Shown one piece after another: positions 4,682 through 26,336 of a stretch of 26,336 nucleotides of DNA. Below the pieces are notes generated by a model. The model was not told the origin of the DNA, did no database searches, and saw only the letters and a program-made list of their open reading frames with translations. This DNA is from a virus (taxonomy: Duplodnaviria > Heunggongvirae > Uroviricota > Caudoviricetes). The translations under genes and the position numbers were made by a program. Where the stretch lies: positions 1-26,336 of the IMG/VR virus record IMGVR_UViG_2695420403_000013; one strand, 5' to 3'. Every line of letters starts with the position of its first letter. Positions within the stretch are counted from its first letter, which is position 1.

Positions 4682-5027
4682 TCTCTGCTCCTGTTGATAC
4701 GGAAAGGGAAACAGGCACACCGTTATTCCGCCGCCCGGTCAGCTCCACCACCATTGAACCGTCAAAATTGCTGTGGATGGTGATGGAATCCAGCGTCAGC
4801 CGTGGCTCCCAGCGACTCAGCGCCACATACACTGCCGACATGACCTGCAGGCGTAATGCCGGATTTTGTGGCTGGTCTATCAGTGCCGACAGCAGGGAAC
4901 CATATTCACGACGGGCAATGCGACTACCCTGTGGTGTCAGCAGAATGTCCCGCACCGACTGGCGCAGATGGTCAATATCAGTAATGGCTTTGCCGCTGGT
5001 ATTGTTCATCCCGCTATAAAGCGTCAT
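4668..5027 (-). CDS. W: Baseplate assembly protein, gpW-like (gp25/GPW family)
   Basis: 119 aa. MTLYSGMN...DILLTPQGSRIARREYGSLLSALIDQP matches my recollection of P2 gpW. Confidence 0.85.
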   Translation of the reverse strand: MTLYSGMNNTSGKAITDIDHLRQSVRDILLTPQGSRIARREYGSLLSALIDQPQNPALRLQVMSAVYVALSRWEPRLTLDSITIHSNFDGSMVVELTGRRNNGVPVSLSVSTGAENGSD

Positions 5028-5602
5028 ACCGGGCCTCCAGTTGTATCGCCGCCTTTCAGGACGCCAGTATGCTGATGCGCATCAACCACGATCCCGTTAG
5101 AACTCATCGCTCCGCCGCCCTGGGTAATGCCACCATTGATCACCACTTCACTGTTAATGCGCGTGCGGTCAGCCTCCAGTACAAACTCACTGGTTTTCAT
5201 GGTGATGTTGTCAGCGGCCTCAATGACCATTGATTTGATGCCCCTGACATACCAGCGCCCGGTGGCGGGTTCGTATTCAAACCAGCCACCGTCAGGATGT
5301 TCTATCACGCAGGCGTCCGCCGACGTCGACGGTGGCGCGAACTGATTCGAATAGATGGCGGGTAACGCAAAGGCGGTTTCCAGATTGCCGCCCAGACTCA
5401 GCAGCACCACCTGCTCACCTTCCGATGGTCGCCACCATGTGCGAGCATTACCCGCGCGCAGCGTCAGCCAGTTAATCCAGTTGGTTTCAAGGTCGCCCGT
5501 TTTCACCCGACAAAGCCAGTTTTCCCGGTCCACTTCGGTGACTACACCTATGCGGATCAGATTGGTGATAAGGCGCATGATTTCGGTTAGTTGTGCGTTC
5601 AT
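5024..5602 (-). CDS. V: Baseplate spike/assembly protein, gpV-like
   Basis: Start placed at ATG 5600-5602 (MNAQLTEIMRLI...), giving 192 aa. The 273-aa listed ORF has an N-terminal extension reaching into the AT-rich intergenic region. ...TWW.PSEGEQV... resembles P2 gpV. Confidence 0.85.
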   Translation of the reverse strand: MNAQLTEIMRLITNLIRIGVVTEVDRENWLCRVKTGDLETNWINWLTLRAGNARTWWRPSEGEQVVLLSLGGNLETAFALPAIYSNQFAPPSTSADACVIEHPDGGWFEYEPATGRWYVRGIKSMVIEAADNITMKTSEFVLEADRTRINSEVVINGGITQGGGAMSSNGIVVDAHQHTGVLKGGDTTGGPV

Positions 5603-5648
5603 AGATATATGATGACAGCTGAAAACTTGTTTATAACTTCTTGCAAAT

Positions 5649-5666
5649 TGTGGTATCGATGGTACA
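5649..5666. promoter_or_regulatory. TGT-N12-ACA dyad in the V upstream region, candidate late-activator (Ogr/B-type) site
   Basis: tgtggtatcgatggtaca. P2-family late promoters carry a TGT-N12-ACA element upstream; spacing to the V start is not a clean fit. Confidence 0.3.
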
Positions 5667-5705
5667 AATTGATAAAAGGATAAAAAACAACCAATAGGTG
5701 GATAA

Positions 5706-6512
5706 ATGAGTGTTATGAATCCAATAAGTTCTAATATATTTAATGCTGAATTTTTAAACACCCCGGCAGCGGCACTTGCCGCATGGATTTCCATTATTGG
5801 AGCTGTTATAACTTTGGTGACGATAGTTATAAGAGCACTATTCAAATATAGAAAATCTCATGATGTAATTTTGAAAAAATCAGGAATACCTGCGTTTATA
5901 TTAAATTTTTTTCTTATACGAATATCATTAAAAAGGCTGCCTACTATCACATGGGCTGAAAAATCAATCACGGTTCTCTTTTCACTTCTTTTTTTGTGTG
6001 CAATTTATATTTTTGGTCCAGTTTTCATCCAAGCCATTAGAACCCCACCAAATAGCACATTGCTTTATTGGATAAAGTCCGGTGAATCATTTTATATGTC
6101 AAAAAAACTGGCGACTGCAGCTACAATATTAACCACTCCTGATTGGGAAATATCAAAGGATGATTGCGAAGAGTCATCCTCTGCCAGTACAGAGAAGTAC
6201 AAATCATTAACTATCGAACATAAAGAAATTCTTTGTAAACTACTAACCACTGATGAAGGGAATGCTTACATTGATGAAGAAGTCAAGAATTTCGTTAAAG
6301 ACAAATTCTTTATCTATTCCTTTGCCCCAACAACCATATTTATTCTATTATGGATTTCTTTGGGTTTTATACTGACCATTCACTATTCTAAAAAAGTTAG
6401 GAAATATATTCTGACTGAACAAAAAAATGCAATTCATTGGGCATATGGTGAATTCAAGACAGAAGGAATCTATTCAATATATCAAGAGTTAGAACGTAAG
6501 ACTCACCATTAA
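5706..6512 (+). CDS. Cargo gene: multi-pass inner-membrane protein of unknown function
   Basis: 268 aa, AT-rich, opposite strand to the flanking late operons. AGGTGG ribosome-binding site before the ATG. About 4 hydrophobic helices plus a ~90-aa acidic soluble loop. Confidence 0.6.
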   Translation: MSVMNPISSNIFNAEFLNTPAAALAAWISIIGAVITLVTIVIRALFKYRKSHDVILKKSGIPAFILNFFLIRISLKRLPTITWAEKSITVLFSLLFLCAIYIFGPVFIQAIRTPPNSTLLYWIKSGESFYMSKKLATAATILTTPDWEISKDDCEESSSASTEKYKSLTIEHKEILCKLLTTDEGNAYIDEEVKNFVKDKFFIYSFAPTTIFILLWISLGFILTIHYSKKVRKYILTEQKNAIHWAYGEFKTEGIYSIYQELERKTHH

Positions 6513-6900: not shown

Positions 6901-7345
6901 GTTTCACCGTCCACATTTCTTCAGGTTCATCGGGTTCTGCTACAGCTTCAACGCTCGACACACTGCCGTCAGTGCTGACCAGCACACGTTCCGTCAGTTG
7001 CAGGTTAAGGCTGATATCACAGACATCGTTACGCAGAATATCCACCTCAAAGGTAAATAGTTTTTCCCGTAACGCCGGGTTATTGATGGCATCGGGCTGG
7101 TTATCCCGCAGCCACAGCAAAACCGGGGCCATCAGCAGATTCTGGTCGCCGCTGAAATCCTCAATCACCGCGTTCAGGGTGTAACGGTACTCCCACGACA
7201 TGGAGCTGGCCCCCGTGGCAACCAGCGAACCGTTATCCACAAACAGATGCAGTTTGTCCGGGTTATTGCGGACATAAGGCACCGCTTTACTGAGGGCGTG
7301 GCGCAGGGATTGTGGTTTGTTCACTGTTTCGCTCCTGACACGCAA
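6893..7345 (-). CDS. R: Tail completion protein, gpR-like
   Basis: 150 aa. ...KPQSLRHALSKAV...NPDKLHLFVDNGS... resembles P2 gpR. The true start may be an internal GTG. Confidence 0.8.
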   Translation of the reverse strand: MRVRSETVNKPQSLRHALSKAVPYVRNNPDKLHLFVDNGSLVATGASSMSWEYRYTLNAVIEDFSGDQNLLMAPVLLWLRDNQPDAINNPALREKLFTFEVDILRNDVCDISLNLQLTERVLVSTDGSVSSVEAVAEPDEPEEMWTVKRG

Positions 7346-7577
7346 TAATCATGTCCACTTTGTCTGCACAGACCGCCCAGGCGGCCTCCGTTTCATCCAG
7401 CAACGCGTTCAGATCACCGTTAGTGCGCGGCGTTGCCTGAGCCAGCCGACACGGCGTCACTCGCGGACAACCACTGACGGTAAGCTGTACCTCCGGTGAG
7501 TGCCGGACGTTCCCGCAGCCGGGTAATGTCAGCAGGCAAAGGAGTATCAGCCCAGCGGCGTAAATCCTCGTTCTCAC
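7287..7577 (-). CDS. lysC: Outer-membrane spanin lipoprotein (LysC/Rz1-like), embedded out of frame in LysB and R
   Basis: Lipobox LLTLPGCG after a hydrophobic signal sequence, Pro-rich, nested in the spanin gene as in P2 lysC. Confidence 0.6.
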   Translation of the reverse strand: MRTRIYAAGLILLCLLTLPGCGNVRHSPEVQLTVSGCPRVTPCRLAQATPRTNGDLNALLDETEAAWAVCADKVDMIIACQERNSEQTTIPAPRPQ

Positions 7578-7848
7578 GTTTCAGTTCCTCGATCCGGTGT
7601 TGTCGTTGTCTCAGCAGTGCGCTGGTCTGTTCTGCTTCGGCATAGAGCCGCGCCTGCTCCAGGTTATTGGTTTCAGTCAGAATGGACAGACCGATCAGCT
7701 GGCTGTTTTTCTTCGTCAGTTCCTGCGCTTTACTTTTCAGCGCCGCGCGCTGCGTTTCGATGGTGTGGCTGGCGCTGTTAAGCCGCCACGACTGCCAGCC
7801 CAGCGCAACGAGTGCCAGCGCCACCACTACTGCCAGCGCACGCGTCAT
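7420..7848 (-). CDS. lysB: Inner-membrane spanin (LysB/Rz-like)
   Basis: 142 aa with an N-terminal TM helix (ALAVVVALALVALGW) followed by a coiled-coil region. Immediately downstream of the endolysin. Confidence 0.7.
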   Translation of the reverse strand: MTRALAVVVALALVALGWQSWRLNSASHTIETQRAALKSKAQELTKKNSQLIGLSILTETNNLEQARLYAEAEQTSALLRQRQHRIEELKRENEDLRRWADTPLPADITRLRERPALTGGTAYRQWLSASDAVSAGSGNAAH

Positions 7849-8360
7849 AGTCCAGCTCCTTTAAGGCACCAGGCCATCTCCCGCGCACGGCGGTTATCCA
7901 GCCCCTGATTAAAAACACCTTTCACATAAACCCAGCGCGGCAACTGTCGGCACGCATCCGCCCAGCGCCGCTGATTGAGCAATTTCACCAGCGTGGAACT
8001 GCAGGCATTGCCCGTTCCCACGTTGAAGGCAAACGACACCGCAGCGTCATACACCTTCTGCGGCGGCTGTTGCTTCACACACCTTTCCAGCGCCCGCTCC
8101 ACACGCAGCACGTTGGAGATCAGCCCTTCCGCTGCCTGTCGTTCCGTAATGGTTTTGCCCGGGATGACGCCCGATGTATTACCAATGCCGTCGGTCCAGA
8201 CACCCGCGCTGCACTGATACGGCTGCAGACGACAGCCTTCGTAATCAGCAATCAGTTTCAGCCCCTCCACGGAGGTGTGAAGCTGCTGAAAACCCGGCAG
8301 CGTGGCAGTAATAGCCAGCACGGTCCCGACAAGGCAGCGTTTAACGATTGATGGATTCAT
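7845..8360 (-). CDS. K: Endolysin (phage lysozyme, gpK-like) with N-terminal signal-anchor
   Basis: 171 aa. Hydrophobic N-terminus VGTVLAITATLPG, then EGLKLIADYEGCRLQPYQCSAGVWTDGIGNT, a lysozyme-like catalytic region. Confidence 0.8.
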   Translation of the reverse strand: MNPSIVKRCLVGTVLAITATLPGFQQLHTSVEGLKLIADYEGCRLQPYQCSAGVWTDGIGNTSGVIPGKTITERQAAEGLISNVLRVERALERCVKQQPPQKVYDAAVSFAFNVGTGNACSSTLVKLLNQRRWADACRQLPRWVYVKGVFNQGLDNRRAREMAWCLKGAGL

Positions 8361-8556
8361 AGTCCTCCCGCGAGATCTGCCCGTCGCGCAGAAGCTGGTA
8401 GGCTTTGTGTTTGTAGTACCAGTTGATAGCCAGCATCAGCACACCAATCATCAGGCCGCCCAGCGTTGAGGCATCCTTGATGGACAAATCGCCCAGCCAG
8501 GCCAGCACGACGGCGATGCAATACGTGATAAAGGCGCTGATTCGCTCAAGCGTCAT
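8341..8556 (-). CDS. Y: Holin (gpY position)
   Basis: 71 aa, two hydrophobic helices and a charged C-terminus, directly upstream of the endolysin. Confidence 0.65.
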   Translation of the reverse strand: MTLERISAFITYCIAVVLAWLGDLSIKDASTLGGLMIGVLMLAINWYYKHKAYQLLRDGQISREDYESINR

Positions 8557-8559
8557 AAT

Positions 8560-8763
8560 TCAGTCCCATAGCTGGACGGTCTGCACGGTGGTGGTTGTCG
8601 GTATGTCCGGCAGCTCCACCTGCAACCCGTGAGGTAAAAAAGGGCCGTATTCGGCAAGCCCCGGATTTGCCTTCAGTACCTGCTCCGTGACACCCTGCGT
8701 GCGCCCGTAATGACGCCAGCAAAGCGCGTCCACCGTGTCATACTGATGCGCACGCACTTTCAT
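8560..8763 (-). CDS. X: Tail protein X-like
   Basis: 67 aa, same length and position as P2 gpX. Confidence 0.7.
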   Translation of the reverse strand: MKVRAHQYDTVDALCWRHYGRTQGVTEQVLKANPGLAEYGPFLPHGLQVELPDIPTTTTVQTVQLWD

Positions 8764-9227
8764 CAGATAAGCTCCACTGTGCAGTGCGGCGCATCCTGCA
8801 CCCGGCTGATGGCCCAGCGGGCGTCACGCCACAAATCACCGCTTGCTTCCGCCAGTTCCTCGCCCCGCTTCACACCGGATGCCGTGGCGTCATAGTCCTG
8901 ATAACGCTCGTTGAGCATGGCGCGTGCCCAGCAGTAAACCGCGTTGAAATAGTGATGAATGCGCTCACTTTTGCCGTCCAGCTGTTCCGCCGGAACCTCA
9001 GCCAGCGACACATACCCCAGCATCTGCTGACGTCTGCGAAACTCATACAGCTCTGCGTTGACCTCCGAAATTGCCGACAGCGCAACCTGCTTTAAACGCG
9101 GCTGCGTCACCGTGCCGTCAGTGCGCATGACACAGCGAAACTCCGACAGGTCCACATCAGGCCAGAACGGCGTGTTTCTGATGATTTCCGCCTGTTCCGG
9201 TGCCTGTTCTGGCGCAACAAACTTCAT
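8763..9227 (-). CDS. L: Head completion/stabilisation protein, gpL-like
   Basis: Start moved to ATG 9225-9227 (MKFVAPEQ...), preceded by AGGAG. The listed ORF start at 9290 is an extension. Confidence 0.8.
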   Translation of the reverse strand: MKFVAPEQAPEQAEIIRNTPFWPDVDLSEFRCVMRTDGTVTQPRLKQVALSAISEVNAELYEFRRRQQMLGYVSLAEVPAEQLDGKSERIHHYFNAVYCWARAMLNERYQDYDATASGVKRGEELAEASGDLWRDARWAISRVQDAPHCTVELI

Positions 9228-9322
9228 GCTGCTTTCTCCTGAAATAGAGGGCGGTGGACGGGGTTTTGATGTGGCAGTGCCTTTCGCCACCCCGTGCCGC
9301 CCGTGCGCGGGGGCACGTTCTG

Positions 9323-9973
9323 TCAGCGGCTGTCATTGCGCAGTCTGCGCTCCAGCTGCTGTTTGTCTTTTTTCACGCCACAGCGGGGATCGAGCTGTAA
9401 CGCATGGTTGAGATGATTAAGGGCGGAAGCCGGATTGCTTTCACTCAGGACAGCGCCAATCGCTTTATGCAGACGCGCCCGTGACTGGTCCGGCATATCC
9501 AGACCGTCTGTCAGCTCCAGCGTCTGCAGCAACAGATCGGCATCAAAGCCGGTGGCGGCAAGCATTGCGCTCTGCGCGGCGTCTGCCATTTCCTCTGCCA
9601 GCACGGTCTGCACGTTGCGGTTACCCAGCGGCATCACCCAGCCATGACGCAGGGCATGACGCCCGATCTCCAGCGCCCCGGCATAATCTCCGGCATCAAT
9701 GCGCCACAGCATCACGTACATCAGCACGTCATCCTGTTGAGCGCCTCCGGCAGCCAGGACACCCTCTGCCCAGGCGGCGTACTTCGGCAGCAGCTCCACC
9801 TTGATTTCCGCTTTTTTGACCGTGGACTGAACGCCCTTGAGACGGCGGCGGTCTTCCGCCAGTTGCAGCAGCATCAGGTCATAGCCCGATGCGTGGCGAA
9901 CACTGCCGCCCTCGCGGGCGGCCTGTTCAGCCTGAACGCGCAGGCGATGCTGCCGTGCGGGACTCAGGCTCAT
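9323..9973 (-). CDS. M: Terminase endonuclease (small) subunit, gpM-like
   Basis: 216 aa, between capsid N and head-completion L as in P2. Confidence 0.8.
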   Translation of the reverse strand: MSLSPARQHRLRVQAEQAAREGGSVRHASGYDLMLLQLAEDRRRLKGVQSTVKKAEIKVELLPKYAAWAEGVLAAGGAQQDDVLMYVMLWRIDAGDYAGALEIGRHALRHGWVMPLGNRNVQTVLAEEMADAAQSAMLAATGFDADLLLQTLELTDGLDMPDQSRARLHKAIGAVLSESNPASALNHLNHALQLDPRCGVKKDKQQLERRLRNDSR

Positions 9974-12027: not shown

Positions 12028-13794
12028 ATGAACACCACACTGACACCCGCAGATCTCGATCCCCGTCGGCAGGCCATGCTGCTGTACTTTCAGGGATACC
12101 GCGTAGCCCGCATTGCTGAAATGCTGGGCGAGAAAGTTGCAACCGTTCACAGCTGGAAAAAACGCGACAAGTGGGGTGACTATGGGCCGCTGGATCAGAT
12201 GCAGCTCACCACCGCCGCACGCTACTGCCAGCTCATTATGAAGGAGCACAAAGAAGGGAAAGATTTCAAAGAGATTGACCTGCTGGCGCGCCAGTCTGAG
12301 CGCCACGCGCGGATCGGCAAGTTTAACAATGGCGGCAACGAAGCCGACTTAAACCCTAACGTCGCCAACCGCAACAAAGGCCCGCGCCGTCAGCCTGAAA
12401 AGAATGTTTTCACCGATGAACAGATTGAGAAGCTGGAAGAAATTTTCCATTCCTCCATGTTCAACTACCAGCGCCACTGGTGGGAAGCCGGAAAAACCAA
12501 CCGCATCCGCAACCTGCTAAAGTCACGCCAGATCGGCGCGACCTTCTATTTTGCCCGTGAAGCCCTGATTGACGCCCTGCTTACCGGACGTAACCAGATT
12601 TTCCTTTCTGCCAGTAAGGCACAGGCTCACGTCTTTAAGCAGTACATCATCGATTTCGCCAAAGAAGTCGAGGTGGAGCTGAAAGGTGATCCGATGGTGC
12701 TTCCTAACGGGGCCACGCTTTACTTCCTCGGCACCAATGCCCGCACGGCCCAGAGTTACCACGGCAACCTGTATCTGGATGAATATTTCTGGATACCGAA
12801 ATTCCAGGAGCTGCGCAAAGTGGCTTCCGGTATGGCTATTCACAAAAAATGGCGACAGACCTATTTTTCCACACCATCCAGTCTGACACACAGTGCTTAT
12901 CCGTTCTGGTCCGGTGCGCTGTTCAACCGAGGGCGCAACAAAGCCGATAAGGTGGACATCGACCTGTCCCACAGCAATCTGGCCCCCGGCCTGCTGTGCG
13001 CAGACGGGCAGTACCGCCAGATAGTCACCGTGGAAGATGCGGTGCGGGGCGGCTGTAACCTGTTCGACCTCGACCAGTTGCGCATGGAGTACAGCCCGGA
13101 CGAATACCAGAACCTGCTGATGTGTGAGTTTGTGGACGATCTCGCGTCCGTGTTCCCGCTCAGCGAGCTGCAAGCGTGCATGGTGGACAGTTGGGAAGTC
13201 TGGACCGACTTTCATGCACTGGCCCTGCGCCCGTTTGGCTGGCGCGAAGTGTGGATCGGTTATGACCCGGCAAAAGGTACGCAGAACGGCGACAGTGCCG
13301 GATGCGTGGTGGTGGCACCGCCAGCCGTGCCGGGTGGTAAGTTCCGCATTCTTGAGCGTCACCAGTGGCGCGGGATGGACTTCCGCGCCCAGGCTGACGC
13401 CATCAAAAAACTGACCGAGCAGTACAACGTGACCTACATCGGCATCGACTCGACAGGTGTCGGCCACGGGGTTTACGAGAACGTGAAAGCGTTTTTTCCA
13501 GCCGTCCGGGAGTTTGTCTACAACCCCAACGTTAAAAACGCCCTGGTACTCAAGGCCTACGACATTATCAGCCACCGCCGTCTGGAGTTTGACGCCGGAC
13601 ACACCGACATTGCGCAGTCATTCATGGCAATCCGTCGCGCAACCACCGCCAGCGGCAACCGCCCGACCTATGAAGCCAGCCGCAGCGAAGAAGCCAGCCA
13701 CGCCGATCTGGCCTGGGCAACGATGCACGCATTGTTTAACGAACCGCTGCAGGGCGAATCCGCCAATACCAGCAATATTGTGGAGATTTTTTGA
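12028..13794 (+). CDS. P: Terminase large (ATPase) subunit, gpP-like
   Basis: 588 aa, divergent from the O-N-M-L operon. Stop overlaps the Q start. Confidence 0.9.
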   Translation: MNTTLTPADLDPRRQAMLLYFQGYRVARIAEMLGEKVATVHSWKKRDKWGDYGPLDQMQLTTAARYCQLIMKEHKEGKDFKEIDLLARQSERHARIGKFNNGGNEADLNPNVANRNKGPRRQPEKNVFTDEQIEKLEEIFHSSMFNYQRHWWEAGKTNRIRNLLKSRQIGATFYFAREALIDALLTGRNQIFLSASKAQAHVFKQYIIDFAKEVEVELKGDPMVLPNGATLYFLGTNARTAQSYHGNLYLDEYFWIPKFQELRKVASGMAIHKKWRQTYFSTPSSLTHSAYPFWSGALFNRGRNKADKVDIDLSHSNLAPGLLCADGQYRQIVTVEDAVRGGCNLFDLDQLRMEYSPDEYQNLLMCEFVDDLASVFPLSELQACMVDSWEVWTDFHALALRPFGWREVWIGYDPAKGTQNGDSAGCVVVAPPAVPGGKFRILERHQWRGMDFRAQADAIKKLTEQYNVTYIGIDSTGVGHGVYENVKAFFPAVREFVYNPNVKNALVLKAYDIISHRRLEFDAGHTDIAQSFMAIRRATTASGNRPTYEASRSEEASHADLAWATMHALFNEPLQGESANTSNIVEIF

Positions 13795-14822
13795 TGGGAA
13801 AGAGTAAGAAGAACCGCGCTGCGGCGACGAAACAGATCCAGCTTAAAAGCCAGACTACAGCCGAAGCATTCAGCTTCGGCGATCCCGTTCCTGTTCTGGA
13901 CCGCCGAGAACTGCTGGACTATGTGGAATGCGTACAGATGGACCGCTGGTATGAGCCGCCCGTCAGCTTTGACGGACTGGCACGAACCTTCCGCGCCGCC
14001 GTGCATCACAGCTCACCAATTGCGGTGAAATGCAACATTCTGACCAGTACCTACATCCCTCACCCGCTGCTCAGCCAGCAGGCTTTTTCACGTTTTGTGC
14101 AGGACTATCTGGTATTTGGTAACGCCTACCTGGAGAAACGCACGAACCGCTTCGGTGAAGTTATCGCCCTTGAACCGGCCCTGGCAAAATACACCCGACG
14201 CGGGTTAGACCTGGATACCTACTGGTTTGTGCAATACGGTATGACAACACAGCCGTATCAGTTCACGAAAGGCAGCATCTTTCATCTGATGGAACCGGAC
14301 ATCAACCAGGAGATCTACGGCCTGCCCGGCTATCTTTCTGCCATTCCGTCAGCCCTGCTCAATGAGTCCGCCACGCTGTTCCGCCGCAAGTATTACATCA
14401 ACGGCAGCCATGCAGGCTTCATCATGTATATGACCGACGCCGCACAAAACCAAGAGGATGTGAACAACCTCCGCAATGCAATGAAAAGCGCCAAAGGACC
14501 AGGTAACTTCCGCAATCTGTTTATGTACTCGCCTAACGGCAAAAAGGACGGACTTCAGATTATCCCGTTATCAGAAGTCGCGGCGAAGGATGAGTTTCTG
14601 AACATCAAGAACGTGAGCCGGGATGACATGATGGCAGCGCACCGCGTGCCGCCGCAAATGATGGGGATTATGCCGAATAATGTTGGGGGGTTTGGGGATA
14701 TAGAGAAAGCCAGTTGCGTTTTTGTGCGAAATGAGTTAATTCCTTTACAAAAAAGACTTGTAGAAGTTAATATTTGGCTAAAGAAAAAAATAATAGCCTT
14801 CAAAGATTATTCATTGAATTAG
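13791..14822 (+). CDS. Q: Portal protein, gpQ-like
   Basis: 343 aa. The last ~35 codons switch to AT-rich sequence, suggesting a chimeric 3' end at the junction with cargo DNA. Confidence 0.85.
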   Translation: MMGKSKKNRAAATKQIQLKSQTTAEAFSFGDPVPVLDRRELLDYVECVQMDRWYEPPVSFDGLARTFRAAVHHSSPIAVKCNILTSTYIPHPLLSQQAFSRFVQDYLVFGNAYLEKRTNRFGEVIALEPALAKYTRRGLDLDTYWFVQYGMTTQPYQFTKGSIFHLMEPDINQEIYGLPGYLSAIPSALLNESATLFRRKYYINGSHAGFIMYMTDAAQNQEDVNNLRNAMKSAKGPGNFRNLFMYSPNGKKDGLQIIPLSEVAAKDEFLNIKNVSRDDMMAAHRVPPQMMGIMPNNVGGFGDIEKASCVFVRNELIPLQKRLVEVNIWLKKKIIAFKDYSLN

Positions 14823-14860: not shown

Positions 14861-16543
14861 TTACAAATACCGTCTAACACGTATTTTATTAATCTTCGAC
14901 TCATTTCCAATTCTTATCAAAGCATTTCTCGCTTTTTCTCCGATGCGTTTCATTCTATCTGAACCATTGCTATACCCACCAAACTTAAGAGCAGTGGCTA
15001 TTATTGAATCACCACCTTCAAGAATGACTTTTTTAAATAAATCATAGTAGTCATCCTCTGAGGCAGCATCCAATATTTCCTCGTGCCTATCAGACCAACC
15101 ATTCTGACTTGATAATTTTATTAGAACATCCTTTATAGAACCATCCAGATTTAAAGTAATAGAATAATCTTGGATTTTTGACTTTAACTCAGCATCTTTT
15201 ATAGGATGAACATTCATGTAAATAGATTGGACATATTCCTTAAGAGCATCATTGCCGTAATTAATAAATTTACTTATTAATTCACTTGCTTTAATATTTT
15301 CATCTAAATCTCTATACAGTCCGACAACACTATCCAAGTCACTTGGAGTTACATACTCTATCCCACCAACCACCGCTTGATATAGATTATCAACGACCTG
15401 ATTTCGGTTATCTTCAAATGAATTATAGAAAAGCTTCCATGCTTCAAACAGTGAACCTCGCTTACTATCACGGATAAGTTCATCATTTCTTAGACTTACT
15501 TGCCTTTGAAAATTGTTCATATCAATATATCCATGCTTAACCATGTCTATAAGGACTTCATCAAGTTCGTTTGTTTTTTTATAACCATATATAAGCAAAG
15601 TATTAAGCCATTTTTTTCCTTTTCCATCCTCTTTTTCATCACGCACATAGATATTTCTCATATTTCTAATATACTCCAATGATGGTACATCTCCATCTGG
15701 AGTAAATGCGTAATGACTCCAACAATACAAAGTTAAGGAGCGTGCGACTTCATTTGCAATTTTATCAAAATTAATGTTAATAGCAGGTAACAAGGCTAGC
15801 AAAAACCGCTCTATTTTTTTCAGTATCCGAATATTTTTAATACCTAGAGAAATGGAGTATTTGCTTAATAATTTATGAACATCAGAATTATTTTTATATG
15901 CTATAGCTGCACATTCTTCTGGCGTAGGGTTATAGGTAATCTCTCTATCAATAACCTTTTCTTTATAAGTGGAGTAATCATCCATACCACTTGTCCCATT
16001 ATTAAGTAAAAGAACCACCTTACAATTTTTTTGTTCTTTCAATAAAGAAACCAACCCTAAGACATCTTTCACTTCTAAATTTTTACCACGTCTTTCTAAG
16101 TCATCTATGACTACAATAACATTAGTAATTGACATAAATGACATTGACTCAAGTGTCGTAGCGAAATTTTTCACAACAGGTGTTTCTTTTAACAAACGAG
16201 CGGTCTTTCTAGTGCAGGATTCAAGAAGTCCCTTTGTATTTTGGGTTGCTGTTTTTAAATTAGGTTTATTTCCAATAAAATCTTTTGTAATTGTATTTTC
16301 AAAGATGGAATATTTTAATGCGTCCAATGAATTAACACCAAAAAGAGAGACGTAACTATATCTATTAAATGCAATCTTATTCTTATTTTCCTTTAAGAAA
16401 GTATTCCAAGTATAGGTTTTCCCAATCCCCCATTCACCCTGAATAGCCATTACCTCAGGTTCTGCAGATGAAATAAAGTCTGACAACTGTTCTTTAATAT
16501 AGTCCAATGACATGCACATTCTCCGAGATAGATAGTCATCCAT
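14861..16543 (-). CDS. Cargo gene: KAP-family P-loop NTPase (PifA-like), candidate anti-phage/exclusion protein
   Basis: Walker A QGEWGIGKT (Trp-containing G-x-W-G-x-G-K-T typical of KAP NTPases) and Walker B VVIDDLERR. AT-rich. Probable true start is ATG 16511-16513 (GGAG ribosome-binding site), downstream of a TATAAT at 16544-16549. Confidence 0.6.
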   Translation of the reverse strand: MDDYLSRRMCMSLDYIKEQLSDFISSAEPEVMAIQGEWGIGKTYTWNTFLKENKNKIAFNRYSYVSLFGVNSLDALKYSIFENTITKDFIGNKPNLKTATQNTKGLLESCTRKTARLLKETPVVKNFATTLESMSFMSITNVIVVIDDLERRGKNLEVKDVLGLVSLLKEQKNCKVVLLLNNGTSGMDDYSTYKEKVIDREITYNPTPEECAAIAYKNNSDVHKLLSKYSISLGIKNIRILKKIERFLLALLPAININFDKIANEVARSLTLYCWSHYAFTPDGDVPSLEYIRNMRNIYVRDEKEDGKGKKWLNTLLIYGYKKTNELDEVLIDMVKHGYIDMNNFQRQVSLRNDELIRDSKRGSLFEAWKLFYNSFEDNRNQVVDNLYQAVVGGIEYVTPSDLDSVVGLYRDLDENIKASELISKFINYGNDALKEYVQSIYMNVHPIKDAELKSKIQDYSITLNLDGSIKDVLIKLSSQNGWSDRHEEILDAASEDDYYDLFKKVILEGGDSIIATALKFGGYSNGSDRMKRIGEKARNALIRIGNESKINKIRVRRYL

Positions 16544-16941: not shown

Positions 16942-17367
16942 ATGAAAAGCTTTTACGTATTAATTTTAATTCTGGTTGCAAGCTTTGTTAGCGTCCCAGT
17001 TCAGGCGGTAACAGCTAAAAACTATGAGAAAGGAACTAAAGCTCAACAGAAATCAATATCTTACCTTTCATGTGCATTCTATGGCAGTAGCACACAATTA
17101 GATCCTAGCTACACGGAGCAAGTACCTACAGCCGATATCAAGATATTACAGAAAGCAGCTTACCACGCTTACAACGATGCGCTCTCATACTTTGGCTATG
17201 AGGAACCAGATCACGAACAACGCATAATTGATTATGCTGAATTTGTGGCGTCGCAAGAAGCTGTGTTATGGGATAAGCCGGGAATGAATGGAAAGCAGGT
17301 AACACTAATTGCTCGTTCTCTCTACAATGAGAGTAACTGTAACTTGTTACTGGACTCAATTAAGTAG
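16942..17367 (+). CDS. Cargo gene: small secreted/periplasmic protein, unknown function
   Basis: 141 aa. Signal peptide MKSFYVLILILVASFVSVPVQA, GAGG ribosome-binding site, AT-rich. Confidence 0.6.
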   Translation: MKSFYVLILILVASFVSVPVQAVTAKNYEKGTKAQQKSISYLSCAFYGSSTQLDPSYTEQVPTADIKILQKAAYHAYNDALSYFGYEEPDHEQRIIDYAEFVASQEAVLWDKPGMNGKQVTLIARSLYNESNCNLLLDSIK

Positions 17368-17526
17368 GAAAAAGATGGTATTTTGCCCGTAGTTTCAACC
17401 TTAATCTCCGAACCTGTCGCAGAACGGGCGTTCACTCATCAAATAAACGCCACACCTAACGCCTCACTGTACTCGTTGTTCAACCTTGCTGACGCCAGAA
17501 CCAAGTTCAGACGCCAGCAACTTTTC

Positions 17527-17760
17527 TTAATGCAGCCAGCTGTCGTCTTCCCACACCTTCTGCATAATCTTCATCACTTGTTTTCTTTCTTCGTCCAGTT
17601 GCAGTCCGGTCAGTTCCACACCGTTAGAGCTACCTTTGCGGATGCGAATTACCGTTTTGGGATACAGGGGGCGCAGATTGCGGTAAAGCTCGGATTCAAG
17701 GGCGTCCAGGGTAGACTGGCTAATCTTCTGCTCTTTATCGATCATTATTTCAATGCGCAT
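17527..17760 (-). CDS. DinI-like protein (second gene of the Tum-like operon)
   Basis: Start at ATG 17758-17760 after GGTGA. MRIEIMIDKEQKIS...LDALESELYRNL...KIMQKVWEDDSWLH resembles DinI (MRIEV...). Confidence 0.65.
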   Translation of the reverse strand: MRIEIMIDKEQKISQSTLDALESELYRNLRPLYPKTVIRIRKGSSNGVELTGLQLDEERKQVMKIMQKVWEDDSWLH

Positions 17761-17770
17761 AAAGGTCACC

Positions 17771-17959
17771 TCAGCTGATGACATCCATTGAGCGGTTGTA
17801 TTCGTGGGTTCTGATTTTTGCCATGAGTTCATCTGTCAGTTCAGAAACCCACTGCAAAGCCAGCCCCTTCTCTTCATCACTACACTCACTAGCCGCTACA
17901 AGCTTAAGAAAAAAATCAATGCGCTGGAGCTTCAAAGACTCCAAAAAATAGTCCTGCAT
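17771..17959 (-). CDS. Small protein (62 aa), first gene of the LexA-controlled operon; possible antirepressor (Tum N-terminal-like)
   Basis: ATG 17957-17959 preceded by AGGAGG. The longer listed ORF (start 18061) would run through the LexA box and is rejected. Confidence 0.4.
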   Translation of the reverse strand: MQDYFLESLKLQRIDFFLKLVAASECSDEEKGLALQWVSELTDELMAKIRTHEYNRSMDVIS

Positions 17960-18112: not shown

Positions 18113-20527
18113 TTAATACAGGTTTCGCCACTTATCATCTTCCTGCAAACGCTGGTTCCGATAGAAGATACGCAGGCCTGCTCCTGACGGAATACTGCCG
18201 CCGCGAAGGAGTAAATCGACCTCTTTCTCGCTGCCATTAAATCCTCTGGACTTCAGTTCATAGACGAGCTGCTGTCGCTGATGGTCTGTAATTCGCTGTT
18301 TGTAGTCTTTACGCCGTTTCGGTTTCACCAGGCGTAACCTTGCAGCCAGTTCCCGGCGCTCTTTTTTGCTCATACTGTGCAGGTAATCGTGCAACTCCTT
18401 GTCATCCATGCGGGTAATGTCCGTCCTAGTATCCCCATCAGCTGATTTGTCTTTCCCTTGTTGGTTCAAATTTTCAGCAAGGGGACAGTTATTGCCACGA
18501 GTCCAAGGGGCGCAAGCGCCCTGGTCGGCTGCCGCCTCCTGAACGTCAACGGCTTTACGAACCATTTTCCACTTCACTGCATGAGTGCAGATCTTGCCCT
18601 CTGCAATGGGTGACCAGATGCCATAAATACGAATACCGTGATCGCCATAGGCGGTCGGCTCTTCATTGATTTCATAAGCGGTTCTGATCAAGTGATATTT
18701 GCGAGGAACCAGCACGCCGCCCTGCCTCATAATGTAGGTGGCAAAACAGCCAGCATCAGCAGCAGCCAGGATGGCATCAAGGCGCGGGTTATCCAGTACC
18801 GGCGCACCTGCTTTTTTGTCACCCTGCTGCCTTGCCGCCTGACCAGCCAACAACCGCAGTTCACGGTAAGCCTGACGCCCTGGAATACCAAAGAAGCGGA
18901 ATTGCTGAACACGATGCAGAGACGCCCAGGCATTAACGTATTCAGCGTTATCACGCAGGGATTTACCCGTTTCCTTGCTGATCTCGCCAGCCAGACCACG
19001 CCCGTCAATGTTCTTACTGATGTATTTCGCGATGTAGCTTGTTGGCGTACCTTTGCGCGGGTTAATCAACTCAGACTTAAAGCGTGGTCCTGTGTTATTA
19101 CCCAGCTCCTCGCGGTCTTCACGAATGGCAAACTTACGCAACAAAGCAGTAATGGCGCGGCGATCTTTTTTGCGCATAAAACACAACAGGTGCCAGTGAA
19201 CTGTACCGTCATGATGCGGCTCAGCCACCCGCACGCCATACCAGCGCAATCCGGCTTTGTGCATCGCCTTACGAAATGCAGCAAACATGCCGACCAGATA
19301 ATCACTGCTTTGTCTTACCGTCGCATTTGTCCAGGTCGGGTTGGGCCTGCCGTTATTTAGCGTGGAATGGAAACGTGACGGACAGGTGATGGTGTAGAAA
19401 ACGGCGCAGTCACCGCGCATTTCCGCGATAAGCTCCAGACCTTTAACACATGCCATCATCTCATTGCGGCGATGCGCCGGGTTGCTACTACTGGCGTTTA
19501 CCACATCTTCCATATCCAGCGTGTCGCCGTCTTCGTTCACCAGTTCATGAGAACGGAAAAACTCCAGCGACTTACGGCGCTGCTCACGTTTATGCATCAC
19601 GGCTTCATAGCTGACATAGGGAGATGCTTTTTTGCTGACCAGGCAGACAGCACGCAACTGCTCTTCCCGCCATTCACAACGCATCTTCCACAATTTCCGA
19701 TACCACCAGTCGGCGCACAACATACGCGCCAGCGAACCCGGAATGAGTTCATAGGGCACGGGTTTACGGCGGTTTCTTTTCCGGCGGAGTTGCTCAAACG
19801 CAGGCGGTATGACATCCAGTCGCAGGGTTTCTGCTGCCACCTTTTCCCATGTCTTGCGGATTTCTTCTGGCTTAACATCATCGGTGGCATACAAATCACC
19901 ACAAGCGGCATCAAGACACATACTCATATGCGCAGCGACAAGAGTAGACAGGCGTTTCACCTGATCCTGACTCATTTCAGGCAAGATCAGCAGGCCGTCC
20001 AGCCCTTCATGGCTTGCCATAAAGCGAAAAGAAGTGGATAGCTGACTGTCGCGTACATGCTCCAGTCGTTCCAGACATGGCTTAATCGTCTCACGCAAAT
20101 AGCGGGAATAAGCCTTTGGCCTGCCCAGGCTGCTGAAGTATTCAATACGTTGCATCAGCGGCTTGCTGATATGGGAAGGCTGGGCGTTAACGTCCGCCAG
20201 TATGACCATGTCCGGATTAAAACGCTGCTGCTCATGCGCCAGCTTTGCCCGGCTAATGAGCTTATCCTGCTCCATTTCGCGCTGGACAGGATCACGTGAT
20301 TCATTAAAAAAATAACGCTCCCAGACCTGATCACTCAGTGCCTCGCGGCGCAACTGTTCCTGCTCGTTATCGGCAGCGTACAGAGTGATCTGGTTTGAAA
20401 GCGCAGAAACCGGCGCAACTTCCGCCGGGTCCAGATAAGGGTTAATGGCCTTTTTCGGACTGTTCCATGAGAACGCTGCGGCAGCCTCGTTAAAGCCGCA
20501 GCAGTTGCTCATATCGGCATGGCTCAT
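18113..20527 (-). CDS. A: Replication initiation protein (gpA-like rolling-circle endonuclease)
   Basis: 804 aa, size and position as P2/186 A. ATG overlaps the Dam stop (ATGA). Confidence 0.85.
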
Positions 20528-23270: not shown

Positions 23271-24215
23271 ATGTCAACTCAAAAATTCACATTTCGCCAT
23301 ATGAATGACGATATGAAAGCCGTTGTCATACAGAATCGCGGTGGTCAGAAAGTAATTGAGCGGATACTCATGGCTTATGGCTTCAAGTCACGCCAGGCAT
23401 TCTGTAACCATCTAGGTATTTCCCAAAGCACGATGGCTAACAGATATGCCCGCGATACATTTCCTGCAGATTGGGTAGTTATCTGCTCAATGGAAACAGG
23501 AGCATCAATTAAATGGCTAGCATTTGGTTCAGATGATGACGAGCAAATGCCATCCCCTTCACCAGAACAACATGTTGAAACACACTCCGAAGATGGTTCT
23601 TATCATGATGTTCACTATAAACAACAAAAGTTCGACAATGAAAACTCCGTTGATTTTTCTCGAGGTGGCAAGGAAGCAATAGAACGAATTGTTAAGGCTT
23701 ACGGTTATAAGACGCGCCAAGCCTTAGCTGATCACTTAGGTATTTCAAAAAGCACATTAGCCACAAGATATATGCGTGATGTCTTTCCTTCAGACTGGAT
23801 AATTAAGTGCGCTCTAGAAACGGGTACTTCACTAACGTGGCTAACTACTGGTAAAGGCCCAAAGTTTGACGATGCAAGAAATGATGTAATTGCTATTACA
23901 CGCAAAAAAATCACTGATGGGAATCTATTTGAGTCAGATTTCTATATGCTTGATAAAGCATTAATACCAGACTCAATCCAATTACCACTGATTGTCAGTA
24001 CCCCAAAAAAAACATACCTATGTGATCAGTCATTTGATGAAATTACAGATGGTAAATGGATTGTTGAAATAGAAGGAAAAGTGAGCATTCGAACCCTAAC
24101 TAGGATACCTGTAGGAAGATTAAAAATCTCAGACAATTATTTATCGTTTGAATGTAATATTTCAGACATTGATGTTATTGCTAAATGCAAATTTTTGCTT
24201 ATAGAAGAATTATAA
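23271..24215 (+). CDS. cI: CI-type immunity repressor with a tandemly duplicated N-terminal HTH domain
   Basis: 314 aa. Two ~70-aa repeats (IERILMAYGFKSRQAFCNHLGISQSTMANRY...METGASIKWL and IERIVKAYGYKTRQALADHLGISKSTLATRY...LETGTSLTWL), each resembling the 186 CI N-domain, plus a CI-like C-terminal domain. Confidence 0.7.
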   Translation: MSTQKFTFRHMNDDMKAVVIQNRGGQKVIERILMAYGFKSRQAFCNHLGISQSTMANRYARDTFPADWVVICSMETGASIKWLAFGSDDDEQMPSPSPEQHVETHSEDGSYHDVHYKQQKFDNENSVDFSRGGKEAIERIVKAYGYKTRQALADHLGISKSTLATRYMRDVFPSDWIIKCALETGTSLTWLTTGKGPKFDDARNDVIAITRKKITDGNLFESDFYMLDKALIPDSIQLPLIVSTPKKTYLCDQSFDEITDGKWIVEIEGKVSIRTLTRIPVGRLKISDNYLSFECNISDIDVIAKCKFLLIEEL

Positions 24216-24227
24216 GAGGATATTGGA

Positions 24228-25202
24228 ATGGCCGGTTCCAATTGGAAAGATAATAGTGAAGAATATATCTCTAGAATCATTAAACTAGAGGAATTAAAAT
24301 CATATTTATCCGATAGTGTCTATAATGATTTGAAAAAACTATTGAATTCTTTAAAGTTTAATGAATTCGATGTGCTTTTTGATGTTTACAGTAAATATTT
24401 TTCTAAAAAATATAATTGTGAGCACATTAACCCCGAACGCACATCCTTAAAAAATAGTGAGATAGATGATTACATTTCAAAAATCACTAAATTAGAGCAT
24501 AAAGTGCGTGAATTGCAAAAAATCCATAACTCTCATTCAGAGCAAATGGAAAAGTTGAATGAAAAATTATTAAATGAAATGGAAAGTAAAAAAAAACTAG
24601 CATCACAGCTAGATTTCCAACACGCCAAAAACAATGAGCTAAAGCTTCAAAACCAAGAACTTTCAAGCAAAATCCAACAAAATAAAATTGACGAAAAAGT
24701 TCCTAAATATGTGCAGGGCGTCAAAGAAAAACTACAGCAGGATGATAAAGATTTCACTGCAATGTCTTACAATTGGGCGATAGCCGGAATACTATTTTCA
24801 TTATTATCTATAAGTGCCGCCTTTTTAACATTTTTTTATAAAATAGATATAAAAGATACTACCCCCATTGAACTTTTTTATTATTTCACTAGGGGCTTGC
24901 TTGGGGTTGCATTACTTTCTTGGCTTTCTTATTTTTGTTTAAACAATTCAAAAAAATACACACATGAAGCAATCATAAGAAAAGACAGACAACATGCTCT
25001 AATGTTTGGTGAAGTCTTCTTACAAATTTATGGTTCAACTGCGACAAAACAAGATGCTATTGATGTGTTTAAAGATTGGAACATGTCTGCTAATTCTGCA
25101 TTCGCAGATAAAATGCAGCCACCTCCAAATTTATTTAACATTCTAGGTACACTTGTAGATAAAAAATCAGCAGCAAATGATGACAGCATTACCAAAAAGT
25201 GA
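24228..25202 (+). CDS. Cargo gene in the lysogenic operon: coiled-coil plus two-TM membrane protein, unknown function
   Basis: 324 aa, AT-rich. Starts 13 nt after the cI stop with an AGAGGA ribosome-binding site. N-terminal ~170 aa heptad-rich and charged; helices WAIAGILFSLLSISAAFLTFFY and LLGVALLSWLSYFCL. Confidence 0.6.
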   Translation: MAGSNWKDNSEEYISRIIKLEELKSYLSDSVYNDLKKLLNSLKFNEFDVLFDVYSKYFSKKYNCEHINPERTSLKNSEIDDYISKITKLEHKVRELQKIHNSHSEQMEKLNEKLLNEMESKKKLASQLDFQHAKNNELKLQNQELSSKIQQNKIDEKVPKYVQGVKEKLQQDDKDFTAMSYNWAIAGILFSLLSISAAFLTFFYKIDIKDTTPIELFYYFTRGLLGVALLSWLSYFCLNNSKKYTHEAIIRKDRQHALMFGEVFLQIYGSTATKQDAIDVFKDWNMSANSAFADKMQPPPNLFNILGTLVDKKSAANDDSITKK

Positions 25203-25283
25203 TGATGTATGACAACATGTATCTAATACATTGACACTGGTTATACATACAGTGAAAATGCTCTCTATTGGAGGGCATTTTTT

Positions 25284-26336
25284 ATGGCAGTACGAAAACT
25301 CACCACAGGAAAATGGCTTTGCGAATGTTACCCCGCCGGACGTAGTGGGCGTCGTGTGCGTAAACAATTCGCCACCAAAGGCGAAGCACTGGCTTTTGAG
25401 CGTCACACGATGGAAGAAACCGAAGCAAAGCCCTGGCTGGGCGAATCAGTAGATCGTCGAACCCTGAAAGACGTGGTTGAGCTATGGTTCAAACTACATG
25501 GTAAATCTCTGACTGCTGGGCAGCATGTCTATGACAAATTGCTGCTGATGGTTGACGCTCTGGGCAATCCCCTTGCAACCGATCTCACATCTAAAATGTT
25601 TGCCCATTATCGAGATAAACGACTGACAGGTGAGATCTACTTCAGCGAGAAATGGAAGAAAGGAGCCAGCCCGGTCACCATTAACCTAGAGCAAAGCTAT
25701 CTAAGTAGTGTTTTTAGCGAACTATCCCGCCTGGGCGAATGGTCATATCCAAACCCACTGGAGAACATGCGAAAATTCACCATCGCAGAAAAAGAGATGG
25801 CATGGCTTACCCATGAGCAGATTGTTGAATTACTGGCTGATTGCAAACGTCAGGACCCAATTCTGGCACTGGTAGTTAAGATATGCTTAAGCACAGGCGC
25901 ACGCTGGCGAGAAGCCGTAAATCTTACTCGTTCACAGGTGACCAAATACCGAATTACCTTTGTAAGAACGAAGGGGAAGAAAAACAGAAGCATCCCTATC
26001 AGTAAAGAGCTTTACGAAGAGATCATGGCGCTTGATGGGTTCAATTTCTTCACAGACTGCTATTTTCAATTTTTATCCGTGATGGAAAAAACGTCTATCG
26101 TGCTCCCTCGCGGTCAACTCACACACGTTCTGCGCCATACGTTTGCGGCGCACTTCATGATGTCGGGTGGAAACATTCTGGCCTTACAAAAAATTCTCGG
26201 ACACCACGATATAAAAATGACTATGCGTTACGCACATCTGGCACCGGATCATCTGGAAACGGCGCTCCGTTTCAATCCTCTGGCAACGCTGCCAAGTGGC
26301 GACAAAGTGGCGGCAGCGGTTGGCATTACCCCGTAA
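25284..26336 (+). CDS. int: Tyrosine integrase (P2/186 Int family)
   Basis: 350 aa. C-terminal catalytic motifs ...HVLRHTFAAHFMMSGG...LGHHDIKMTMRYAHL. GGAGGG ribosome-binding site. Ends at the window edge. Confidence 0.9.
   Translation: MAVRKLTTGKWLCECYPAGRSGRRVRKQFATKGEALAFERHTMEETEAKPWLGESVDRRTLKDVVELWFKLHGKSLTAGQHVYDKLLLMVDALGNPLATDLTSKMFAHYRDKRLTGEIYFSEKWKKGASPVTINLEQSYLSSVFSELSRLGEWSYPNPLENMRKFTIAEKEMAWLTHEQIVELLADCKRQDPILALVVKICLSTGARWREAVNLTRSQVTKYRITFVRTKGKKNRSIPISKELYEEIMALDGFNFFTDCYFQFLSVMEKTSIVLPRGQLTHVLRHTFAAHFMMSGGNILALQKILGHHDIKMTMRYAHLAPDHLETALRFNPLATLPSGDKVAAAVGITP

Follow-up and report, generated by a model that had tools for sequence, protein, structure and literature searches.

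The window analysed here is the whole of a 26,336-nucleotide (nt) stretch of DNA, positions 1 to 26,336 of IMG/VR virus record IMGVR_UViG_2695420403_000013, and it holds a P2/186-like prophage next to rcdA/ybjJ of Escherichia coli, with an identical region in strain 20KM2222. Between the genes for the 186-type repressor CI and the integrase lies an open reading frame (ORF) at 24228-25202 (+), identified by ORF calling, a profile match and homologs as a 324-amino acid (aa) member of phrog_2628 with a coiled coil and two transmembrane (TM) helices. With a probability of roughly 0.5, this ORF is a cargo gene (a "moron") within the lysogenic operon; its product would be made together with CI in lysogens and would act as a stand-alone, membrane-anchored anti-phage protein. 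This is the best supported reading because of the operon-like placement of the gene, its foreign composition, a genomic slot dominated by defence genes and a variable head carried on a membrane module that is linked to TIR proteins. The family is an uncharacterised one within a known kind of prophage defence hotspot, and the main alternatives are non-abortive superinfection exclusion or an effector for a nucleotide signal made in trans.

The presumed upstream gene of the operon, at 23271-24215 (+), codes for a 314-aa CI repressor with two matches to Pfam Phage_CI_repr (3e-58) and one to Phage_CI_C (3e-31), annotated in RefSeq as "phage repressor protein CI". Its TAA stop codon occupies 24213-24215 and the ATG of the ORF starts at 24228, which leaves a gap of 12 nt and places the ATG at +13. 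By direct reading, a Shine-Dalgarno-like AAGAGGA at 24214-24220 (+) overlaps the cI stop and lies 7-8 nt before the ATG, and so the earlier note, which had called an AT-rich 324-aa ORF after cI with a good ribosome-binding site, described the locus correctly. The ORF has a G+C content (GC) of 31.0% (26.8% at third codon positions), compared with 38.1% for cI, 48.3% for int and 49.3% for the whole window. Its product is identical to WP_021518680.1, annotated as a "hypothetical protein" in E. coli 20KM2222. The ORF reads as a genuine gene and not a chance reading frame, because 153 homologs exist and orphan copies are under purifying selection. These homologs, found in a search of 5.8 billion proteins, are around 320 aa long, occur across the Enterobacterales and are all labelled "hypothetical".

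The placement after the repressor is a constant feature of the family. In all 42 of the IMG/VR loci with a family member, the gene is directly 3' of a 186-type cI, and int follows downstream in 40 of them, with the remaining two loci ending at contig ends. Most of the genome-derived loci, including those in Serratia, Klebsiella, Dryocola, Brenneria and Yersinia, share the cI-proximal placement. No terminator or convincing promoter was seen in the 12-nt gap between cI and the ORF, and a strong hairpin lies 3' of the ORF; together with the 42 cI-proximal loci, this supports the argument from position that had been made before, and the ORF would thus be co-transcribed with cI and made in lysogens. 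In about ten loci, an extra 1-2 kb separates the family member from int, and the genes found there include PD-T7-4 (8e-76), the KAP nucleoside triphosphatase (NTPase) PDC-S20, PDC-M11A/B, a bPH-SHOCT protein, the reverse transcriptase of a group II intron and a TIR-like gene. A fixed two-gene system was rejected, as what lies between the family gene and int varies or is missing altogether. The group II intron assignment concerns two loci, L030 (4111-5598, -) and L031, in which the family member and int are separated by a reverse transcriptase gene (RVT_1) of opposite orientation; the L030 gene has generic reverse transcriptase and homing-endonuclease models as its best PADLOC matches and is most likely part of such an intron.

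The interval between cI and int was also sampled independently of the ORF family, using 80 IMG/VR prophages with an integrase at least 99% identical to that of the window. At least 17 unrelated cargo clusters occupy the slot in these prophages, and eight of the ten clusters that were tested match PADLOC families, the matches being PD-Lambda-1 (7e-120), Old (9e-235), PDC-S20 (2e-171), PDC-M18A/B, PDC-M11A and an AriA/OLD-like protein. A secreted Cys-rich protein of 63 aa is present in 44 of the 80 loci, followed by PD-Lambda-1 (12), a DUF4747 pair and the KAP NTPase PDC-S20 (7 each), P2 Old and the ORF family (3 each), and PDC-M18A/B, PDC-M11A and the OLD/AriA-like ATPase (2 each). The 63-aa protein, this commonest occupant (L062:4621-4812 and 43 other loci), begins with a signal peptide, and its mature part is rich in Cys (MLGKVFFVVLSCSLLLSPLTTYA followed by KNYPCSGKKGG...); it is cI-proximal like the ORF family, and a KAP NTPase may come next. 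A hotspot between cI and int has been described in K139-like relatives of P2 (PMC9122126), and 8% of P2 defence systems have been placed in the int-primase interval (PMC13586616).

The boundaries of the exchanged DNA could be followed by comparing prophages. Relative to a prophage carrying DUF4747, DNA homology ends within cI near 23857 and is picked up again at 25226, 24 nt past the stop codon of the ORF; relative to the CFT073 allele, which is 38% identical to that of the window, it is lost in the N-terminal half of the ORF and resumes inside the ORF at about 24868. Among 5426 complete E. coli genomes, the flanks are present in 1136, the window allele in 7 and a homolog detectable at the DNA level in 151, including CFT073. 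Because of this patchy distribution and a GC of 31% against 49%, the ORF is foreign, mobile cargo in a defence-rich, hypervariable slot. Isolated phages with the window integrase carry a PD-Lambda-1-like gene or a DUF4747 gene in place of the ORF.

These comparisons bear on whether the gene might instead serve the phage itself, by tethering CI or Int to the membrane or modulating them, for example as an anti-repressor, an induction sensor or a control on integration. The family gene is always the first after cI, and the variable DNA block covers both the C-terminal domain of CI and the N-terminal half of the ORF, as such a role might require. The earlier note had asked whether the gene is conserved in all 186-like phages; it is absent from 186 itself, from all INPHARED phages and from 77 of the 80 same-integrase prophages, which hold unrelated genes in its place. 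Orphan copies, moreover, persist without cI or int, and homologs are found outside prophages, so that a factor for lysogeny was already disfavoured and is given only a very slight chance of being correct. A related proposal, that the N-terminal domain of the ORF co-evolves with the C-terminal domain of CI as a CI-binding tether, was rejected on a rho of 0.18 and one decoupled pair, in which ORFs 93-99% identical lie beside unrelated CI C-terminal domains.

The predicted anatomy of the protein agrees with the coiled coil and two TM helices that had been proposed from the sequence, which hydropathy, AlphaFold2 and a profile search of the PDB all uphold. Hydropathy places the hydrophobic helices at aa ~183-203 and ~216-238, and the second is followed by a segment rich in K/R. 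TM helix 1 (24774-24836, +) starts with the invariant W183 and G187 and reaches 2.2 in Kyte-Doolittle windows of 19 aa; TM helix 2 (24873-24941, +), assigned from hydropathy and conservation, contains the conserved basic R222 close to the periplasmic end. The K/R-rich segment after TM helix 2 therefore suggests an N-in/C-in hairpin, with both termini cytoplasmic and a periplasmic loop of about 12 aa. An AlphaFold2 model, built from an alignment of 91 sequences and with a mean predicted local distance difference test (pLDDT) score of 74, is all-helical and consists of a small N-terminal bundle (aa 5-62), one continuous helix (76-203) that runs into TM helix 1, a helix (213-268) in which TM helix 2 is extended to residue 268, and tail helices at 274-291 and 302-315; for aa 90-140 the pLDDT is >90. 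The sequence-profile search of the PDB returned only coiled coils of the GCN4/myosin type, over aa 44-150.

That no family could be recognised, as the earlier note had it, no longer holds: the ORF matches phrog_2628 over its full length and belongs to a superfamily comprising 465 or more sequence clusters. The phrog_2628 match (PHROGs v4, function unannotated) has an E of 4.7e-71 and 240 bits and aligns aa 27-319 with profile positions 26-310 of 314; no annotated PHROG other than phrog_2628 matches the ORF. Searches of the literature for the accessions, phrog_2628, PF19964 and PF28496 gave no match. The last of these is a tag on one homolog.

Conservation divides the protein into two parts. 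The N-terminal half (aa 1-140; 24228-24647, +), modelled by AlphaFold2 as a helical bundle and the start of a coiled-coil-like helix, has a mean column conservation of 0.21-0.36 and is a putative sensor or oligomerisation head. The module that follows (aa 141-300; 24648-25127, +) is conserved at 0.55-0.92 and comprises a juxtamembrane helix (QQxRIDxKIPxYV), the TM hairpin and a cytoplasmic tail; invariant residues are numerous immediately ahead of TM helix 1 and in the ~60 residues that follow TM helix 2. The tail, which had been taken as short, is in fact around 85 aa long and the best-conserved region of the protein; its signature at aa 244-293 (24957-25106, +) reads Y-T-H-E-x-I-x-R-K-D-R-x-H-A-L-x-F-G-x3-L-Q-I-Y-G ... 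V-F-K-D-W-N-M-S ... A-F, and D253, R254, H256, A257, F260, G261, L265, F281, W284 and N285 are invariant even when TIR-fused relatives are included. Between the window allele and an allele 79% identical to it, the ratio of nonsynonymous to synonymous substitution (dN/dS) is 0.47 in the N-terminal half, at a dS of 0.52, and 0.20 in the C-terminal part, at a dS of 0.125. This ratio and the four-fold higher dS of the N-terminal half indicate relaxed constraint together with recombination, as judged from these two alleles.

The membrane module extends well beyond the phage family. When 1.84 billion cluster representatives were searched with a profile of aa 138-324, 465 proteins matched, 288 of them at E ≤1e-10, and in all 465 the module is C-terminal, behind 100-235 variable residues. 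One match is annotated as a TIR-domain protein, and nearly all of its 210 homologs are tagged PF13676 or PF01582. When a hidden Markov model (HMM) was built from the heads of these tagged relatives, 32 of the top 150 module matches proved to be TIR-headed, while none of 120 enterobacterial family members matched; a Pfam scan of the ORF itself likewise found no TIR domain (PF13676/PF01582, with the catalytic Glu). Aligned by hhalign with the full-length TIR family, the module gives a probability of 99.7% and an E of 2e-26 over 179 columns. W183, G187, D253, R254, H256, A257, F260, G261, L265, F281, W284, N285 and P300 are invariant in the joint alignment, and the TIR heads of the relatives retain their invariant Glu. 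By sequence, then, the ORF is assigned to an unnamed superfamily of coiled-coil-headed or TIR-headed 2-TM proteins, here defined by the "DRxHA" signature, and this link between the ORF family and TIR-headed proteins is previously unreported. It also strengthens the argument, made in the earlier note, from a variable head on a conserved membrane part, since the module and the C-terminal half of TIR-domain proteins are homologous.

The TIR-headed relatives, of which WP_069841788.1 from Roseivirga is an example, share with the ORF an overall length of ~320 aa, the topology and a homologous C-terminal stretch of ~180 aa with 14 invariant positions. They differ in the head, where a TIR domain with its invariant Glu replaces the coiled coil of the ORF, and in their location, as they belong to marine Gammaproteobacteria and Bacteroidota and lie outside the 186-like cI-int slot that holds the ORF. 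The annotation "toll/interleukin-1 receptor domain-containing protein" is found among them in Tenacibaculum, Pseudoalteromonas, Shewanella, Idiomarina and Vibrio. No paper on these TIR-2TM proteins was found, and to our knowledge they are themselves uncharacterised. There are no E. coli proteins among the top TIR-headed relatives. A validated "TIR plus TM" system of E. coli (PMC11350192) could not be linked to the module, as no sequences appear in its text.

Several of these relatives have defence genes or mobile elements as neighbours. One TIR-headed relative (L140) adjoins HEPN_AbiU2 and insertion sequence elements, another adjoins ParE/Phd, and a coiled-coil-headed member in Shewanella (L146) lies ~3 kb from Hachiman. 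Directly downstream of a TIR-headed relative in an Idiomarina sp. (L143), a cluster at 7048-9472 consists of ThsB_TIR, SLATT_1, ThsB_TIR and TIR genes with HEPN-Toprim, and is carried by a TrwB/TrwC conjugative element. The family gene is also still present in a prophage remnant of Pectobacterium brasiliense (L007:4745-6929), in which cI is reduced to its C-terminal fragment and int to a trace, and which otherwise retains only the family member and a gene for a TIR-like protein of 309 aa (PADLOC "Effector TIR", 3e-8).

The company of TIR domains opens the possibility that the DRxHA..FG..WN tail forms a pocket for an ADP-ribose-type nucleotide, made by a TIR protein whose gene lies at another site in the host or on a co-resident element. 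The fusion of a TIR head to the same module in relatives and the TIR-like gene directly after the family member in the Pectobacterium remnant speak for this, and SLATT 2-TM effectors have been described as nucleotide-responsive and TIR-associated (PMC7159879, PMC9503650, bioRxiv 10.64898/2025.12.03.692087). Set against these points, the window is without a TIR gene, the ORF matches no SLATT model, most loci have no partner or only variable ones, and the orphan copies in Chimaeribacter have no neighbouring TIR gene. An answer to a signal made in trans is thus judged quite unlikely, and the same low odds are given to its corollary, that the coiled-coil version is a head-less, SLATT-like effector and not a self-contained sensor-effector.

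Those orphan copies bear on what the gene is kept for. Intact and syntenic copies are present in C. arupi, C. californicus and C. coloradensis (L016:4971-6050, L017:4557-5618 and L018 ~4980-6059), where they lie among housekeeping-type genes (a methyltransferase, a hydrolase, LysR) with no cI, int or prophage genes nearby. Their GC has ameliorated to 0.50 and their dN/dS is 0.08-0.10 at a dS of ~0.9, which amounts to strong purifying selection. As these orphans are free of cI and int, the gene must therefore be kept for a benefit to the host and work without phage partners. Selection on the orphans shows that there is a benefit but not its nature, and lysogen-expressed prophage cargo can serve many host functions; a membrane protein of lysogenic conversion, concerned with envelope physiology, stress tolerance or colonisation and unrelated to defence, would also fit an ORF that matches no defence library. 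What speaks against such a role is that the alternative occupants of the slot that were tested are so largely defence-family proteins, that the module is shared with TIR proteins in defence islands, and that a highly variable head is joined to a conserved, effector-like part. Lysogenic conversion is accordingly held to be unlikely, though it deserves more weight than a signal in trans.

For the anti-phage reading, a gated membrane effector is the most likely mechanism, with an oligomer in which the head would serve as sensor and the 2-TM hairpin and tail as effector. The protein would form an N-in/C-in hairpin in the inner membrane, with oligomerisation through its long cytoplasmic coiled coil. 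Detection of a feature of the infecting phage by the variable N-terminal head would switch the conserved module (the juxtamembrane helix, the two TM helices and the DRxHA..FG..WN tail) to a membrane-compromising state, and the loss of membrane integrity or energisation would then cause the infection to be aborted or excluded. In many other bacteria, the same module is paired with a TIR head. A bolder extension of this proposal is offered tentatively, as somewhat less probable than not: the module may represent an undescribed but widespread family of gated membrane effectors, SLATT-like in function and with swappable heads (TIR, coiled coil or other helical domains), of which the prophage version would be a self-contained sensor-effector run from the repressor operon, bringing about membrane failure once the coiled-coil head encounters a component of a phage, and the Chimaeribacter copy a domesticated immune gene.

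Phage-encoded membrane proteins can also protect without killing the cell, by blocking genome entry or an early step at the membrane, as is known for P22 SieA, T4 Imm, HK97 gp15 and the lactococcal protein Sie2009, whose gene likewise lies between those for repressor and integrase. The inner-membrane hairpin, the presumably constitutive expression from the repressor operon, the position between repressor and integrase and the failure to find a toxic enzymatic domain in the ORF would all suit non-abortive exclusion of this kind. However, nearly the whole protein is predicted to be cytoplasmic, with its periplasmic loop of only about 12 aa, and the module is common to TIR-headed proteins, the known TIR systems acting by NAD+ depletion or by signalling and suicide. 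In addition, the orphans of Chimaeribacter are maintained and relatives reside in defence islands, and no homology to the characterised proteins SieA, Imm, gp15 and Sie2009 was detected through PHROGs or by tblastn of 50,697 phage records. Exclusion without cell death is consequently regarded as improbable, on a par with lysogenic conversion.

A number of observations weigh against the defence reading itself. The ORF has no curated Pfam or NCBIfam match, and none of the PADLOC-DB v2.0.0 models reaches an E of 1e-3 against it; the best of them (STK_OB, JetC, LmuB and ZorA, E 0.005-0.4) all fall over the coiled coil, and the sub-threshold matches to DUF7603, SMC, JetC, LmuB, ZorA and DUF2207_C were dismissed as compositional noise from that coiled coil. 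A tblastn search of INPHARED (50,697 phage records) with the ORF gave no match. Structure searches with the model of the protein returned just generic helical hairpins, none of them significant. The 2-TM module could be a mere anchor, or a sensor instead of an effector, because no enzymatic or pore domain is recognised in the protein. Positive selection on the N-terminal half is not demonstrable at a dN/dS of 0.47, the higher dS there pointing to recombination. The constant cI-proximal position, with further cargo placed on the int side, could also fit a phage-related role, and guilt by association in hotspots is probabilistic by nature.

If the defence reading is true, the ORF represents a new single-gene defence family for E. 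coli and other Enterobacterales, and the cI-int interval of 186-like prophages becomes a third productive hotspot of the P2-like kind, besides the portal-gpA and tail-gene sites. A membrane module common to hundreds of TIR proteins would then be accessible through a small gene with an invariant motif, as a handle on TIR-linked 2-TM gating. Such cargo would help to explain strain-specific resistance in phage therapy against uropathogenic and extended-spectrum beta-lactamase-producing E. coli. Should defence not be its function, the protein would still be a widespread, lysogen-expressed membrane protein that bacteria keep after the loss of the prophage.

The flanks of the slot have features of their own. 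CI has two tandem N-terminal helix-turn-helix (HTH) domains of the Phage_CI_repr type (aa 1-97 and 135-198) and a C-terminal oligomerisation domain, CI_C. In many prophages that share the integrase, CI is a single-HTH protein of 190 aa instead of the 314-aa, double-HTH form, and in prophages with HTH domains 74-84% identical, the C-terminal domain of CI is just 21-39% identical. In one locus (L067:1822-3371), tandem cI genes for a 190-aa CI and then a 307-aa, double-HTH CI precede a KAP NTPase and int.

On the other side, the tyrosine integrase of 350 aa (25284-26336, +; Pfam Int_N and Phage_integrase) marks the end of the prophage beside host rcdA/ybjJ, as judged from the RefSeq context. It is preceded by a conserved 58-nt leader (25226-25283, +), which belongs to the int flank and not to the cargo, since homology between prophages of different cargo resumes at 25226. 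The leader has a promoter-like TTGACA-17-GAAAAT at 25231-25259 (TAAAAT in other loci) and, at 25254-25282, a 13-bp hairpin with U6 that ends at the int ATG, with a dG of -26.7 kcal/mol and a z of -3.2; the Shine-Dalgarno GGAGG of int sits in its 3' arm. Across 132 loci with 52 distinct leaders, in which int identity falls as low as 55%, the hairpin is retained with many alternative stem sequences (GCTCTCT/GGAGGGC, AGCCCTC/GAGGGCT, TCCTTCT/AGGAGGA, CCCCTTC/GGAGGGG and others), usually with the U-run. This suggests termination and/or translational masking of int upon read-through from the repressor operon, and the hairpin probably ends or attenuates the transcript of cI and its cargo and occludes the ribosome-binding site of int.

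Two further AT-rich islands lie elsewhere in the prophage. One, at 14861-16543 (-) and ~32% GC, codes for a 560-aa P-loop NTPase of the KAP family that matches the PADLOC candidate PDC-S49 (8e-25), and it is accompanied by small ORFs at 16942-17367 and 17383-17778 (+). It is a probable second defence cargo of the prophage, because this AT-rich, PDC-S49-like NTPase occupies the classical P2 hotspot between the portal gene (13791-14822) and the replication gene A (18113-20527). The third island of the prophage, at 5706-6512 (+) and ~34% GC, lies in the tail/late region and codes for a 268-aa DUF6216 protein with no PADLOC match, which may be cargo of the P2 tail-gene hotspot.

Among known systems, lambda rexA-rexB was the model first proposed for this gene. 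RexAB is co-transcribed with cI, and its membrane component is presumed to act on membrane potential. The likeness stands as regards position, since in both cases cargo with a membrane component follows the repressor gene, for the ORF in a presumed lysogenic transcript, and is one of analogy only; homology is not supported, with no PADLOC match and with a single gene for a 2-TM protein with a coiled-coil head, whereas RexAB is made of two genes, for a soluble sensor (RexA) and a channel with four TM helices (RexB). The closest concept is that of the SLATT 2-TM effectors of CBASS, Thoeris type VII and other nucleotide-signalling systems, predicted to be gated and membrane-permeabilising (PMC7159879; bioRxiv 10.64898/2025.12.03.692087). 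Their architecture of two TM helices and cytoplasmic helices resembles the one predicted for the ORF, and SLATT combines with TIR, as the module of the ORF does by fusion in relatives at loci other than this prophage. The module differs in its own DRxHA..FG..WN signature and long juxtamembrane helix, and the ORF is not classed as SLATT because no SLATT model (PF18181, PF18183, PF18184, PF18186, PF18160) matches it at E ≤1; none appears among the tags of ~240 homologs, and SLATT proteins of BFVD stay at E >1 throughout in the structure search. Lactococcal Sie2009 and PdpSau of Staphylococcus aureus (PMC10127798) are, like the ORF, single membrane-anchored proteins from the lysogeny module of a prophage, and those two protect against other phages, although their topologies and hosts differ. 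The other cargo of the cI-int interval, including PD-Lambda-1, PD-T7-4, Old, PDC-S20 and the glo gene of Vibrio phage K139, has the same insertion site, a low GC and an exclusive or stacked occupancy in common with the ORF (PMC9122126); its proteins are unrelated to that of the ORF, whose family always takes the cI-proximal place.

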